Below the pieces are notes generated by a model, which made no database searches, was not told the DNA's origin, and saw nothing but the letters and a program-made list of their open reading frames with translations. A DNA stretch of 64,000 bases from Candidatus Zhuqueibacterota bacterium (lineage in GTDB: Bacteria > Zhuqueibacterota > Zhuqueibacteria > Oceanimicrobiales > Oceanimicrobiaceae), in contig JAJDAF010000030.1 of the NCBI GenBank assembly GCA_029261995.1, positions 28,671 to 92,670 on the forward strand, in the 5' to 3' direction. Below are positions 32,679-37,832 of the stretch, piece after piece. Position 1 is the first letter of the stretch; each line of letters opens with the position of its first letter. The position numbers and the translations under genes were made by a program.

Positions 32679-35447
32679 TCACAGATTTCGCTCAACCTCA
32701 TGACTACTCGAGTCACTGCTCTTCAATGTCAACTGCTGCAGGTAGGACAAGGCCTGTTGATTTCCGGGATTCAACTGCAACCAGCGCTTGATGCCAGCCA
32801 ATCCGCGTTTGAACTGCCTGGTCTGCATGTAAAATCCGGTAAGCCAATTGAGCACGGCGGTTGAATTGGGCGAACTCTGCATCACGGAAAACGCCAGCGT
32901 CTCAGCTTTGTCGTGGTCCTGCAAATATTGACTGTAAAAGGAAGCGACTGTCAGCAGATCTCGCTCGGGCAAAGTCCGCTGCTCCAGAGCTGCGAGTCGT
33001 TTCGCCAATTCCTGTGGCCTGCCGGCCCGAAAGTACATTTCCCCGAGCATCAGCTTGGTGTTGTGGTTGCGTATTGGCAGAGTCATCTCTGGCAGTCGCT
33101 CCTCCATGTGGTCCAGCGTATCGGCGGCTTTTGCGTTGGCGCCTGTTCGCAGGTAGTGGTTGGCCAGTCTGAAAAATGCCATCCTGTAGTTCTGCAACAA
33201 GCCCTGCGTCCGAAAATCGAGGTGCACTTGGGGATCATCCAAACCACGATATCTGAAAGTATTCACCAGGTTGTTTTCAAGCCTGGCCGGTGCGATGAAA
33301 TCTCCAGCCACGCCGTAGGGCATAATTTGAAAAGCCATGCCATCCATGCGCAGGTAATTCTTGCTGTCGGCCTTGCGCGCACCGTTGTTCAAGCCCAGCA
33401 TGTTGGTGTTTGCCACGGTGGCGGAGAAATAAAGCGGGCGGTCGAACCGGTTCTCCGCAATAATATGAAGCAGCACCCGGTCTTGAATCAGAATGACCGG
33501 GCGGTCGCCAAAGCGGTTTGTTGCAGCCATCTCGAATACCAGGGCCGGCGGCTCATCCAGAGTCGGCGACAGATTGTCCTCTTCTTCTTTCAGGTAGCGA
33601 GAGACGCTGTCGGACGGCACGCCGATTTTGATGGTGCGCGGCTCGGGCCAAAGCATCGGCTGCAGCCGCTCCAACTGGTCATCGGTGTAGCTAATCGGCA
33701 CGGTTGGAGCTACGTCGCGTAGCTGCTTGATGTACCACGTCGCGTTCAGCAGAGCCAGACAGACTACCCGAACGTCCGGCCGAATGCCTTCCACGTATTG
33801 CAAATACCAAATCGGATACGTGTCGTTGTCACCATTGGTAAACAAAATGGCATTGGGCGCGCAGCTTTGTAGAATGTTGTAGGAATAGTCGGAGGCAACG
33901 TAGTTTCCGGTTCGATCGTGGCTCTCGTAGTTGAAGGCCAGCAGCTTGAGAGGCACGGCTGCGAGCAGCATCGGGAACACTGCTGCAAGGGTGGCTACCC
34001 GGAGCGCAGATGGCAATCGCCGAACTGCACGGCCGACGGCCGCAAGCAAAGCGCTGGCGCCAATCCCAATCCAGATGGCAAACGCGAAGAATGAGCCTGC
34101 GTAGGCGTAGTCTCGCTCCCGCGGCTGCGGGTCCGCCTGATTCAGGTAGAGTGCGATCACCAGACCCGTCATGAGAAACAAGGCAAGGATAGAAACGGCC
34201 CGTGGCCAATCCCTGCGGAAATGGTGCACCATGCCAATCAAACCAAGCAGGAACGGCAGGCCGAGCAGCCCGTTCAGGGATATCGTCTCAGCCAGAAGCC
34301 CATACCTGCTGCGGGCGTCCCCCTTGCCAATGAACTGCCAGCCGAAATAGCGCAAATACATCTTCCTGACCTGGTATTCCCAAACCGGTGCGCGGCGCTG
34401 CAAAAAGGGAATGTCACCGTACTGCTCGCGATTCAAATAACTGGCAAAGCGCGCCGGCACTTCCGGATCATTCATGTCGATGATCGGGTCCTTGCCGGAG
34501 CGGATGTACAAAGCCGTGTAGCTGGAATATCCGACAAGAACCAACATCACGGCCTGGACAAACAGGGCCAGCACACGCTTCTTGCGACTTACAGCGCGGT
34601 GAGCCAGGAAAACCAAAACTCCGCCTACGAAAAATGGCGCTGACGCGGAGAACTCGTTCATAAGCCACGGTATGCCAATTACCACTCCCGGGTAGACCAC
34701 GACCATGGTTGCCAACCCCATCACTGTAAACAAGCCAAAGCTGCGAACAGTGAGTTTGGAGGTCCTGAAGAAGATGAGCAGGAAAACCGTGACCAGAGCG
34801 AGAACGCTCAGCAAGTGCACGCCGAGAGCGAGGCCAATCAAATAGGCGATCAGGAGCAGCAAGCGGTCGCCGCCGCGGGAGGCGGGCTGCCTGTCCCACA
34901 CGAGAATCAACCAGACCACGCAGGCGGTGAAAAAAAGTGAAAGCGAATAGACCTCCGCCTCCACCGCATTGAACCAGAATGCGTCCGTAAAAGCAAGCGT
35001 AAGCGCTCCGACAAATGCACCGAGATGGCGGAATTCAGCATGCGGCAATCCGGACCGACGGTCTGTCGGGTCAGGCGCGCTTGCTTTGTGAGTCTCTGAA
35101 AATCGAATTTCTCCGCCCGACTTGCCGCTCGGGATCTGCCAGCGTGCAAGCAGAAGCACAGTGCTCAGGTAAGTCAGTGTGACGGTCACCGCGCTAATCA
35201 ATGCCGAAAATATGTTGAGGCGCAGGCCAATGTCATCGAACAAGGGTAACATCGTGAATAGCCTGCCTAGAAGAACATAGAGCGGAGCCCCGGGAGGATG
35301 CGGCACGCCCATCGTGTAGGAGCAGGAGATGAACTCGCCACAGTCCCAGAACGATGTGGTTGGCGCGACCGTTTGGGCGAAGACGATAAATGAGACCAGA
35401 AACGACAGCCCCGCCAGCAAATGGTGAAACGAGATCTTTGGCTTCAT
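32679..35447 (-). CDS. DUF2723 / TMEM260-like multi-TM protein (putative GT-C glycosyltransferase) with C-terminal TPR
   Basis: APTTSFWDCGEFI...GVPHPPGAPLY, FWFNAVEAEVY, GVHLL, YLNREQYG, QPRERDY, FTNGDNDTYP; many TM segments. An alternative TTG start lies at 35483. Confidence 0.88.
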   Translation of the reverse strand: MKPKISFHHLLAGLSFLVSFIVFAQTVAPTTSFWDCGEFISCSYTMGVPHPPGAPLYVLLGRLFTMLPLFDDIGLRLNIFSALISAVTVTLTYLSTVLLLARWQIPSGKSGGEIRFSETHKASAPDPTDRRSGLPHAEFRHLGAFVGALTLAFTDAFWFNAVEAEVYSLSLFFTACVVWLILVWDRQPASRGGDRLLLLIAYLIGLALGVHLLSVLALVTVFLLIFFRTSKLTVRSFGLFTVMGLATMVVVYPGVVIGIPWLMNEFSASAPFFVGGVLVFLAHRAVSRKKRVLALFVQAVMLVLVGYSSYTALYIRSGKDPIIDMNDPEVPARFASYLNREQYGDIPFLQRRAPVWEYQVRKMYLRYFGWQFIGKGDARSRYGLLAETISLNGLLGLPFLLGLIGMVHHFRRDWPRAVSILALFLMTGLVIALYLNQADPQPRERDYAYAGSFFAFAIWIGIGASALLAAVGRAVRRLPSALRVATLAAVFPMLLAAVPLKLLAFNYESHDRTGNYVASDYSYNILQSCAPNAILFTNGDNDTYPIWYLQYVEGIRPDVRVVCLALLNATWYIKQLRDVAPTVPISYTDDQLERLQPMLWPEPRTIKIGVPSDSVSRYLKEEEDNLSPTLDEPPALVFEMAATNRFGDRPVILIQDRVLLHIIAENRFDRPLYFSATVANTNMLGLNNGARKADSKNYLRMDGMAFQIMPYGVAGDFIAPARLENNLVNTFRYRGLDDPQVHLDFRTQGLLQNYRMAFFRLANHYLRTGANAKAADTLDHMEERLPEMTLPIRNHNTKLMLGEMYFRAGRPQELAKRLAALEQRTLPERDLLTVASFYSQYLQDHDKAETLAFSVMQSSPNSTAVLNWLTGFYMQTRQFKRGLAGIKRWLQLNPGNQQALSYLQQLTLKSSDSSSHEVERNL

Positions 35448-35512
35448 ATGGAACGTTGGCCTTTCAAGGACGAGTGGCTGCAAAAGCCGTCAACCGCCTG
35501 CACAGCAAGCTC

Positions 35513-36666: not shown

Positions 36667-37832
36667 TAGTTTGTGCGAATGTATTTGACTAGCTCCTTGC
36701 TACCGGCCTTCTCCGCAACGGCAAACGACAAGTCGCGCCAATGTTTGCTTTCAGCCAAATCGCCGCTGACGCGATAGTGGTCGGCGAGCAGGAGAAAGGG
36801 CGTGACGTAGTTGGCATTCAAACGAAGAATCGCTGACGACGCCGGATAAAACTCGCCGTACCATTCTTCACTGAGATTGTCGAGACGAAAGGCTTTTCCG
36901 ACGTGTTTCCTGAGCAAAGCCAGGTTGTCGAGACGACTGTCCGGTGAATATTGGTAAACAAGGCCGGTGATGAAGAGAGAATCTTCGAACTTCTCGAAAT
37001 ACCTTTGCTCGAGGGTGAAGGCAAAGCACACGGTCCGGTCAGGATATTTTGGGGCGACTTTGACAACAAACGCGTCAGCCCATTTCTTCTTGTCGCCCGC
37101 AGGGACGTCAGCGTCGAGCCTGATTGGCAAGTTTGCCTGCCGGAGCAGCCGATCCAGGTAGTCTGAATGCTGAGCCATGCTGACGTTGACCACAGTCACA
37201 TCCCGACGAATGGATTTTACGATCTGCAACACCCAGGCCGGGTAGGTGTCATTGTCGCCATTCGTTAGCAGAATGCCGTCTCGTGGCACTGACATCAGAA
37301 CATTGTAATTGTACTCAAGCAAACCCGGCGCAATGTCACGGCTATCATAAAGCATTTGCAGGTATTTCTCCGCAATTTCATAGTGGCCGGGGCCGGCGAG
37401 CATGTTTCCGGATATGAGGCCGTACAATGGTTCAGGATTGTCCGGTTGAATTCGATGTGCTCGCTCCAAGAACTCCAATTCTTGGTCTTGGTGCAGGCGG
37501 CTCGACAGGTAAGCGTATTCGTAGCTGTTTGGGAGGGCTCGCTTGATATCCTCAAGAATTGCCTGAAGAGCGGCACGATTTTCCTCTTCATTCTCGCTCA
37601 GATGGCCGTATTCTGTCGCAATGTAGAGGTTATACCAGGCCTCGGCGCGATTCGGCATGCGAAGCGTTTCAGCTCGCCAGAGTTTGGCTTGAGATCGATA
37701 CCACTCCTGCGGCCGCGCTTCATAAATGCGACGATACACTTTCTCAGCAATTCCTGCTTGCTCCTGCGCCACAGCGGGGCTGCAGGCGGAACAAAAAGCA
37801 GCAACGACGTAAAAGAGAACAATCCGTCTCAT
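36663..37832 (-). CDS. Secreted protein: TPR-like N-terminus plus a paralog of the soluble domain of DUF2723/TMEM260
   Basis: Signal peptide (possibly lipoprotein). YNVLMSVPRDGILLTNGDNDTYPAWVLQ...IRRDVTVV aligns with YNILQSCAPNAILFTNGDNDTYPIWYLQ...IRPDVRVV in 32679-35447. Confidence 0.8.
   Translation of the reverse strand: MRRIVLFYVVAAFCSACSPAVAQEQAGIAEKVYRRIYEARPQEWYRSQAKLWRAETLRMPNRAEAWYNLYIATEYGHLSENEEENRAALQAILEDIKRALPNSYEYAYLSSRLHQDQELEFLERAHRIQPDNPEPLYGLISGNMLAGPGHYEIAEKYLQMLYDSRDIAPGLLEYNYNVLMSVPRDGILLTNGDNDTYPAWVLQIVKSIRRDVTVVNVSMAQHSDYLDRLLRQANLPIRLDADVPAGDKKKWADAFVVKVAPKYPDRTVCFAFTLEQRYFEKFEDSLFITGLVYQYSPDSRLDNLALLRKHVGKAFRLDNLSEEWYGEFYPASSAILRLNANYVTPFLLLADHYRVSGDLAESKHWRDLSFAVAEKAGSKELVKYIRTNY

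Follow-up and report, generated by a model that had tools for sequence, protein, structure and literature searches.

The 64,000-nucleotide window (the whole stretch of DNA analysed here) belongs to a contig of a Candidatus Zhuqueibacterota bacterium and carries four minus-strand genes within positions 32679‒37832. All four open reading frames (ORFs) are present as listed in an initial annotation made from the sequence: a secreted protein of 389 amino acids (aa) (hereafter S389), an extracytoplasmic function (ECF) sigma factor, a putative anti-sigma factor, and a glycosyltransferase with a DUF2723 domain. By homology, S389 corresponds to the acceptor-binding 'hand' of a GT-C protein O-glycosyltransferase of the TMEM260 type, copied as a secreted protein (a 'hand without wrist'), and it belongs to a conserved module with the sigma and anti-sigma genes. 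From the first gene to the last, the features are as follows.

36663‒37832, minus strand: S389 (ORF 1), 389 aa; a predicted Rossmann-like palm with tetratricopeptide repeat (TPR)-like helices, the stand-alone hand of TMEM260-type enzymes
36067‒36666, minus strand: ECF sigma factor (ORF 2), 199 aa counted from a TTG; the GTG at 36654 or the ATG at 36609 is a possible true start
35513‒36070, minus strand: putative single-pass anti-sigma factor (ORF 3), 185 aa
32679‒35483, minus strand: DUF2723/TMEM260-like GT-C glycosyltransferase (ORF 4), 934 aa counted from a TTG; the ATG at 35447 is the likelier start

The predicted parts of S389 comprise a signal peptide, a helical N-terminal region, and a palm with a strictly conserved loop.

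37764‒37832, minus strand: signal peptide, residues 1‒23 (MRR, a hydrophobic core, and AVA-QE), read by eye from the sequence
37293‒37709, minus strand: N-terminal TPR-like helical repeats, residues 42‒180, placed by an AlphaFold2 (AF2) model, a profile, and fold matches
36828‒37340, minus strand: palm with an α/β core, residues 165‒335, placed by a domain model (pLDDT 89), a profile, and hhalign
37239‒37265, minus strand: motif T190-N-G-D-N-D-T-Y-P198, defined by alignments to TMEM260 and by conservation in 33 sequences

In a BLASTP comparison, residues 173‒303 of S389 match residues 532‒660 of the 934-aa enzyme (E = 2e-14, 33% identity), at the same coordinates as the homologous block proposed in the initial annotation (37190‒37320 and 33765‒33890). 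The weaker similarity suspected past this block was also confirmed. When a profile of 33 S389 relatives was aligned by hhalign with the C-terminal 409 residues of the enzyme (probability 99.5, E = 2.3e-23), the match ran from residue 173 to residue 363 of S389 and covered residues 532‒787 of DUF2723, and the homology therefore takes in the whole domain plus the helices after it. The corresponding part of the enzyme gene is the following.

33123‒33890, minus strand: periplasmic palm and first TPR helices of DUF2723, residues 532‒787, the S389-homologous part

The loop sequence TNGDNDTYP is identical in S389 and the DUF2723 enzyme of the window, and T190, N191, G192, D193, N194, D195, and P198 are invariant among the 33 S389 relatives. 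With a profile of the S389 palm only, the top sequence match in the PDB was human TMEM260 (9RQL; E = 2.5e-4, chain residues 421‒480). G192-D193 of S389 is aligned with G440-D441 of the human protein, and the invariant residues R209 and D211 are aligned with R457 and D459. S389 has no PF11028 match, and its single hydrophobic segment lies at the N-terminus, where a hydrophobic stretch begins all 33 aligned members of the family. These results agree with the earlier proposal that S389 is without the membrane domain, and the homology and the signal-peptide reading together support its description as a stand-alone, secreted copy of the soluble domain of the enzyme. Since it lacks the membrane part, where the lipid-linked sugar donor is bound, S389 cannot alone be a TMEM260-type enzyme. 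The GT-C membrane core is absent, and S389 shares a domain with the TMEM260-like family, yet is not a member enzyme.

The AF2 model of S389 (pLDDT 88.6) shows TPR-like helices at residues 42‒180, an α/β core at residues 187‒295, and three C-terminal helices, and positions 47‒163 of the S389-family profile matched consensus TPR proteins (E = 4.4e-8). In fold searches with the whole model, Foldseek against the PDB returned TPR proteins only, with TM-scores below 0.31, and the wide VIA-align search returned TPR and other helical matches only (Z of 8‒9.5 for the TPR proteins). With the palm only, Foldseek returned nothing below E = 0.1, and the best VIA Z was 4.5; the periplasmic domain of ArnT came 30th in the VIA search (Z 3.8). 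TMEM260 was not retrieved by these fold searches, in which the presence of a TMEM260 entry in the fold library is uncertain. Since the fold searches gave nothing convincing, the placement of the palm rests on sequence profiles.

A local Pfam search gave no match for S389 or for the 185-aa anti-sigma factor. The tag PF28495 ('TMEM260_2') on S389 and its relatives comes from precomputed public annotation and not from our own model search. A word-based search with E up to 0.001 found 206 relatives, and the 120 of them that were listed are 352‒425 aa long and all carry PF28495 alone. The hand domain also occurs in proteins of other kinds. One class, with 417‒463 aa, consists of paralogues of the periplasmic part of the enzyme (L015‒L021, in G037, G001, G027, G004, G017, and G003); these resemble the enzyme more closely than S389 does (phmmer E-values as low as 2e-49), lack a sigma or anti-sigma gene alongside, and have no counterpart in the genome of the window. 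Another class of about 700 aa has PF28495 without the PF11028 tag (P0121‒P0127, with open frames of 662‒699 aa in G009, G011, G012, and G013) and thus shows the hand domain in a further context.

The DUF2723 protein, in turn, can be compared with human TMEM260 over its length. ORF 4 matches PF11028 (TMEM260-like) at residues 47‒243 (4.8e-58) and TPR_19 at residues 856‒913, the latter with 23.3 bits and under the curated cut-off of 25. Its comparison with 9RQL (E = 1.4e-17) aligned three stretches, which include the first luminal loop with D52, and residues 469‒594 of the enzyme, corresponding to TMEM260 365‒483. The Asp residue of FWDCGEF in the window enzyme falls on D52 of GGDSGEL in the GT-C core of TMEM260, and TNGDNDTYP is aligned with LRGDLPGNS, which contains the catalytic-base Asp. 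ORF 4 thus has the predicted layout of a TMEM260-like GT-C enzyme, namely a multi-pass core with an acidic loop residue, followed by a palm with the catalytic-base Asp and then TPR.

According to the available part of the structural report on human TMEM260 (10.64898/2026.03.17.711096), this O-mannosyltransferase (PDB 9RQL/9RQM/9RQN) consists of a membrane 'wrist', where lipid-linked mannose is bound, a Rossmann-like 'palm' (residues 416‒564), and TPR 'fingers' (residues 565‒706), and its active site is split between the membrane core and the palm. In the same source, the palm and fingers hold an extended acceptor peptide with contacts from R439, G440, P443, and E466, and D441 adjoins the acceptor Thr as the catalytic base, so that D441A is inactive (10.64898/2026.03.17.711096). 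This grip of the human hand on the acceptor peptide therefore offers a structural basis for a possible binding of the enzyme's acceptor by S389.

The conservation of the S389 locus was analysed with one genome per species, which gave 581 S389 relatives; the counts below refer to the best 80 loci with flanks of about 8 kb, in which ORFs were called and then searched with the four window proteins. These loci come from Ignavibacteria, Zixibacteria, Calditrichota, Latescibacterota, Fidelibacterota, Cloacimonadota, and many Bacteroidota, a cultured Bacteroides among them. An ECF sigma gene is next on the same strand in 64 of the 70 loci that have at least 650 nucleotides (nt) after the S389 homologue. 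A third ORF follows the sigma gene in 59 of the 60 loci with room for it, and 55 of these 59 ORFs encode a hydrophobic segment, as judged by a Kyte-Doolittle window. The proposed association of S389 with a sigma/anti-sigma pair thus holds across several phyla of the Fibrobacterota-Chlorobiota-Bacteroidota (FCB) group. The six loci without a sigma gene include a Fidelibacterota chromosome and longer, more enzyme-like proteins.

The initial annotation had made its reading dependent on conservation of the four-gene order, and this order did not recur: the DUF2723 N-domain was found within about 8 kb in 0 of the 80 loci, and the arrangement is peculiar to this genome among the 81 loci, including the window. 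Clustering of the neighbouring ORFs revealed no further family common to more than 10 loci. The conserved unit therefore consists of three genes, and S389, the ECF sigma factor, and the predicted single-pass anti-sigma factor form a module that is conserved in Ignavibacteria, Zixibacteria, Calditrichota, Latescibacterota, Cloacimonadota, and Bacteroidota metagenome-assembled genomes. Within the taxonomic family of the window's source, one of 20 other genomes (G013) has a close S389 homologue. In its 3.3-kb contig (L051, G013:C640), a 258-aa ORF at 2175‒2951 opens with the N-terminal ~208 residues of the S389 orthologue, up to and including TNGDNDTYP...IRKDV, and runs on in frame into the C-terminal ~50 residues (region 4) of the sigma factor; the next ORF (2955‒3344) is the start of an intact-looking ZAS anti-sigma factor. 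This fusion appears to be either a deletion that kills the module or an assembly collapse.

ORF 2 matches Sigma70_r2 (5e-14, residues 36‒103), Sigma70_r4_2 (8e-12, residues 135‒180), and TIGR02937 (sigma70-ECF; 110 bits against a cut-off of 42.9). It contains regions sigma-2 and sigma-4 only, and its 199 aa leave no space for region 3. With this domain make-up and a promoter of the expected kind, with AAC in its ‒35 and a conserved ‒10, ahead of its own operon, ORF 2 is assigned to the group 4 (ECF) sigma-70 factors. All NCBIfam equivalog matches of ORF 2 are under their cut-offs. The main text of the ECF re-classification (PMC7826278) describes no group with this context, and its supplementary group tables may list one.

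ORF 3 lies directly after the sigma gene and encodes a single hydrophobic segment, as expected of an anti-sigma factor. It has a weak NCBIfam 'antisigma' match (5e-4, far under the cut-off), and phmmer, with E-values down to 3e-14, shows its homology with the third-gene products at other loci. Two regions could be placed on it.

35696‒35764, minus strand: predicted transmembrane segment, residues 103‒125, after a conserved R-I-P-x-Y-Q
35537‒35578, minus strand: conserved periplasmic C-terminal motif (G165 ... D171-S-V-L ... F178), from the alignment

In the 23-row alignment of the anti-sigma family, the His and both Cys residues of an HxxxCxxC zinc motif (H-x3-C-x2-C) are at least 90% conserved, and zf-HC2 (PF13490) was detected in 8 of the 23 members but not in the window copy, which has E36, S40, and A43 at the zinc columns. 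We therefore regard the window protein as a homologue of the ZAS family with a lost zinc site, which leaves it outside the zinc-based definition of class I. The tail has the family consensus QKxGxNxxED(S/T)xLxxF, in which G165 and D171 are invariant. D-S/T-x occurs at this column in 38 of 60 proteins, in the window and all 24 loci of L022‒L054 that have a third gene, in a minority of Bacteroidota, and in none of the short Bacteroidaceae forms.

An ECF-type promoter precedes the module. When two-part words were enumerated in the 260 nt upstream of S389 homologues, GAAC-N16-TGTA turned up in 52 of the 73 regions, compared with 0.2 in shuffled sequence. Allowing a gap of 16 or 17 nt, the word occurs in 55 of 81 regions, including the window, usually 20‒90 nt before the ORF start; four of the 81 regions are shortened by contig ends. 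The consensus is TTGAAC(C/G)TTT...(C/G)GTGTAT(T)A, and the window contains the following site.

37864‒37903, minus strand: ECF-type promoter, ‒35 TTGAAC at 37897‒37892, a 16-nt gap after GAAC, and ‒10 GTGTAT at 37876‒37871

Its GAAC lies 63 nt upstream of the S389 ATG. The candidate promoter that had been picked out in the window (37872‒37896) thus coincides with a motif conserved before homologous operons, which is comparative evidence in its favor. A leave-one-out position weight matrix (PWM) scored the window site at 30.9 bits, and the next site on the same strand in 32001‒38200 at ‒1.6. In the whole 7.18-Mb genome of the window's source, the site was the top match with 34.0 bits against 20.0 for the next (the matrix having been trained with the window site included). 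Since a conserved ECF-type promoter stands ahead of the module, the S389 operon very probably activates itself via TTGAAC-N15-GTGTAT.

In ten other genomes, exact matches of the pattern were searched and then scored with the PWM. The S389 operon site was the top-scoring exact match in seven of them (28.4‒36.2 bits), and G041, G046, and G047 have no site above 16.7 bits. Beyond the S389 operons, G041‒G045 contain nine extra exact matches, against seven for a reversed-pattern control. Strong sites elsewhere are few. The top site of G050 (L134, G050:C20:82630-82654; 31.6 bits) is 239 nt before a different gene, which is nadC-like (quinolinate phosphoribosyltransferase) by eye, and a further site of G048 (L143, G048:C2:754933-754957, minus strand; 23.1 bits) is 206 nt before a gene whose secreted product exceeds 440 aa; the DUF2723 gene of that genome is ~15 kb away. 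It is thus most probable that the sigma factor drives little beyond its own operon. Taken jointly, the anatomy, the homology, the conservation of the module, and the promoter form a picture in which we have high confidence. In the genome of the window's source, the fourth-best site (G000:C5:4868, plus strand; 18.6 bits, TTGAGCC...GTGTAA) is found 47 nt ahead of an ORF for a lipoprotein-like protein of 483 aa (VKRNVIRK...NSCAVNPVTGKRE), which we take to resemble an M48-type periplasmic metalloprotease; it is a possible minor member of the regulon.

The initial annotation described the first three genes as translationally coupled, and this is partly supported. The S389 stop codon and the TTG of the sigma gene overlap by 4 nt, and the GTG of the anti-sigma gene is overlapped by the sigma stop codon (GTGA). 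On the other hand, the in-frame GTG (36654) and ATG (36609) are equally possible starts of the sigma gene, the anti-sigma gene has an alternative ATG at 36061, and the gap between the S389 and sigma genes ranges from ‒65 to +434 nt at other loci. The distance from the anti-sigma stop codon to the start of DUF2723 is 29 nt for the TTG or 65 nt for the ATG at 35447, which is the likelier of the two. Between 35513 and 35447, neither a terminator nor a sigma-70-type promoter was predicted by a consensus scan that covers promoters of the sigma-70 type only. We consider it somewhat probable that DUF2723 is co-transcribed with the module in this genome. Among the sequencing runs listed as containing this stretch, there are three DNA runs from a single study and no RNA run.

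The genes around the four ORFs seem unrelated to them. Upstream and divergent are genes for an aminopeptidase P and a TonB-dependent receptor, and downstream of DUF2723 is a gene for a GNAT acetyltransferase (31929‒32438). A sigma-70-like promoter match (32589‒32617, minus strand; TTGACA-17-TATCTT, 10/12) lies between the DUF2723 stop codon and the GNAT gene, which suggests that the operon ends at DUF2723.

The enzyme of the window is a second paralogue. The genome has two PF11028 genes only, both full length (906 and 934 aa), and the window copy is 48.9% identical to the copy on contig C9. In the sister genome G013, the DUF2723 contig is orthologous to the C9 copy (64% vs 53% identity) and stops ~90 nt upstream of the gene, and it is thus uninformative on the operon. 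Each of the ten other module-carrying genomes has at least one PF11028 gene, with 17 loci together. At one of these, in G048, an intergenic site of 24.3 bits precedes the ATG of DUF2723 by ~120 nt. From the rate of about one non-operon site of at least 20 bits per 14.4 Mb in the window's own genome, counting both strands, ~0.01 chance sites would be expected in the ~120 kb of DUF2723 loci scanned, a rough figure because genome compositions differ. The earlier claim of a circuit that includes the enzyme stands in a weaker form: it has the adjacency in the window and the promoter before DUF2723 in one of ten other genomes in its favor, and a general link across loci did not emerge. The tie between module and enzyme appears to be recurrent but lineage-specific, and not general. 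Short PF11028 genes were noted at G049:C1:406980-409375, G049:C4:136589-137113, G043:C1:2012072-2012557, and G050:C2:215597-216121, with open frames of 615‒690 aa, two of them in tandem in G049. These are below the size for a full palm with TPR, and the proteins may be GT-C cores without hands.

On this basis, we propose that S389 is the periplasmic ligand-binding partner of the sigma/anti-sigma switch, and that its palm and TPR groove would bind an extended peptide as the parent enzyme does with its acceptor. The best candidate for a resident pseudo-acceptor on S389 is the C-terminal tail of the anti-sigma factor (…G-x-N/S-x-x-E-D-S/T-x-L-x-x-F). When unmodified acceptor segments of envelope proteins build up, they would compete for S389, so that the tail is exposed, the anti-sigma factor is inactivated, and the sigma factor is freed. 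The freed sigma factor would transcribe the operon, and the resulting increase in S389 would reset the system. Since DUF2723 is probably co-transcribed in this genome, activation of the switch would here also raise glycosylation capacity via the spare enzyme, closing a homeostatic loop. We regard this chain as a whole as tentative, with less than an even chance of being right, and the sensor with its pseudo-acceptor, taken by itself, as a possibility about which we are doubtful. A stronger version, in which the module gauges protein O-glycosylation capacity, is a long shot: the anti-sigma tail would be a genuine DUF2723-type acceptor, bound only while unglycosylated by S389, which keeps the Asp that contacts the acceptor hydroxyl, and this binding would set the stability of the anti-sigma factor.

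Prediction of a complex between S389 (residues 24‒389) and the anti-sigma tail (residues 124‒185), each with its alignment, gave 0.45, 0.02, and 0.02 against a mark of 0.32, which is evidence neither way. In 50 loci, the S389 loop and the tail motif are both present in 33, both absent in 10, and found singly in seven (four with the loop only and three with the tail motif only), and loci that depart from TNGDNDTYP in the loop tend to be those that lose the tail motif. Several observations weigh against S389 as a sensor of acceptor segments. The co-variation of loop and tail comprises just 4‒5 independent tree contrasts, with a median p of 0.5 in a sign test. The D-S/T-x tail is least conserved in Bacteroidota, the sole phylum with an established D-S/T-x sequon. 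The window anti-sigma factor is without zinc ligands, and its binding to the sigma factor is assigned by homology alone. No fusion of PF28495 with sigma or anti-sigma domains occurs among seven longer relatives (704‒732 aa; all with PF28495, two also with PF13174), which is weak evidence. On the side of the enzyme, besides the lack of DUF2723 within 8 kb at the 80 other loci, the C9 copy has no ECF-type promoter of this kind, and the other 16 of the 17 DUF2723 loci reach 13.1 bits at most, the better sites lying inside coding sequence. Finally, the own operon is the sole strong promoter in most genomes, which fits S389 as an output at least as well as a sensor.

The last point leads to a different role, in which S389 is the output of the switch and not its sensor: the anti-sigma factor would sense alone via its short periplasmic tail, for example through regulated proteolysis, and the sole job of the sigma factor would be to raise S389, a periplasmic holdase or shield for extended unmodified acceptor segments. 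Since the sigma factor seems to be without another strong target, this is nearly as likely as the sensor, and we hold it to be possible, if doubtful. S389 stands first after the ECF promoter and is the one non-regulatory gene of the conserved module; there is no second strong promoter site in the own genome, the extra sites in G041‒G045 occur at the control rate (9 vs 7), and the parent hand, as far as the available part of the structural report goes, binds unfolded, extended peptides (10.64898/2026.03.17.711096). A pure output gene, however, need not stay in a regulatory operon across phyla, and a general holdase has no obvious need for the strict keeping of the catalytic-base Asp and its loop. 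Moreover, some genomes do have further strong sites, before DUF2723 (24.3 bits) and the secreted protein (23.1 bits) in G048 and in G050 (31.6 bits). The switch may also be unconnected with glycosylation, the hand having been recruited as a generic periplasmic binder of peptides or other ligands and the sigma factor responding to something else, with DUF2723 as a chance neighbor under its own promoter. The uniqueness of the four-gene order among the 81 loci and the absence of the promoter at 16 of 17 DUF2723 loci of other genomes are consistent with this, and the promoter scan, being of the sigma-70 type only, leaves room for a promoter of another type in the 29‒65-nt gap. Against it, S389 and the bacterial enzyme share an identical TNGDNDTYP loop, the element that carries the catalytic base and holds the acceptor, and this argues for a retained ligand; the link to the enzyme is also of two independent kinds, adjacency in the window and the 24.3-bit promoter in G048, where the rough estimate of chance sites was ~0.01. 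We consider such a disconnection unlikely.

S389 might instead work with or on the enzyme, either as a hand acting in trans for GT-C cores that have none or as a competitor that titrates acceptors away from DUF2723; it would then be an accessory subunit or an inhibitor of glycosylation under stress control. PF11028 proteins of ~615‒690 aa, too short for a full hand, do exist in G043, G049, and G050, and S389 keeps the catalytic-base Asp, which acts across the split between core and palm in the active site of TMEM260, according to the accessible part of the report (10.64898/2026.03.17.711096). In the genome of the window's source, however, both PF11028 genes are full length (906 and 934 aa), and at none of the 80 other loci are S389 and DUF2723 neighbors. 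Since S389 has its N-terminal TPR block at the position where the enzyme has its membrane core, docking onto the core in the geometry of the enzyme is not obvious, and we find a partnership of this kind quite improbable. S389 as the peptide-binding sensor of the switch remains our tentative working model.

Pairs of ECF sigma and anti-sigma factors are the commonest envelope stress switches, and to our knowledge the signal is unknown for most ECF groups. The sensor model would provide a route to the signal, unmodified acceptor segments, for a switch that is widespread in the FCB group, and a handle on bacterial TMEM260-like enzymes, whose human relative is now solved with a bound peptide. The TTGAAC-N15-GTGTAT promoter can serve as an immediate reporter. 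If the capacity gauge were true, the DUF2723 enzymes would fill the place of the long-sought transferase that initiates general O-glycosylation at D-S/T-x in the FCB group, and the operon would be their dedicated surveillance circuit, wired in this genome directly to a spare copy of the enzyme. In the literature searched, no published description of the S389 module was found; what was found on DUF2723 concerns the human enzyme and describes no bacterial TMEM260-like member, consistent with the statement in the initial annotation that none is known to be characterised, a search for TMEM260 in a Bacteroid- context returned nothing, and the O-oligosaccharyltransferase literature names no Bacteroidota enzyme.

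In Bacteroidota, exported proteins undergo general O-glycosylation in the periplasm at D-(S/T)-(A/I/L/V/M/T...) sites, and the available parts of these reports called the transferase unknown in 2022 (PMC8729774, PMC10897501). The anti-sigma tail resembles these sites in its Ser/Thr residue after Asp, with D-S/T-hydrophobic kept at a fixed column in 38 of 60 proteins. The sequon is, however, short and of low specificity, and the tail motif is weakest in Bacteroidota, so that we treat the resemblance as a lead only.

The closest comparison for S389 is the hand of TMEM260. The palms are homologous (E = 2.5e-4 with 9RQL directly, and E = 1.4e-17 through the bacterial enzyme), invariant residues of S389 are the aligned counterparts of G440-D441 in the catalytic crevice and of the R-x-D (R457, D459) in the strand that follows, and helical repeats flank the palm in both. 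Unlike TMEM260, S389 has no GT-C core and no donor site, is predicted to be secreted and soluble, and has its gene in a sigma/anti-sigma operon; its TPR-like helices are mostly N-terminal to the palm, whereas the fingers of TMEM260 are C-terminal. As a regulatory system, the module can be compared with ECF systems that have a separate periplasmic protein, namely CnrYXH of Cupriavidus, in which the sensor CnrX is bound to the anti-sigma factor CnrY, and RseB bound to RseA in Escherichia coli. Common to these systems is one autoregulated operon that encodes an ECF sigma factor, a single-pass anti-sigma factor whose periplasmic part is short, and a further protein, which is secreted. S389 differs in that it is unrelated to both CnrX and RseB and derives from the acceptor-binding lobe of a glycosyltransferase, and the regulon seems to be limited to the own operon in most genomes. 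Switches of the ECF type that include a third periplasmic protein are known. The apparently new element, besides the breadth of the module across phyla and its defined promoter, is an accessory protein copied, without the wrist, from the lobe with which a glycosyltransferase binds its acceptor, and this origin points to the probable ligand of S389.

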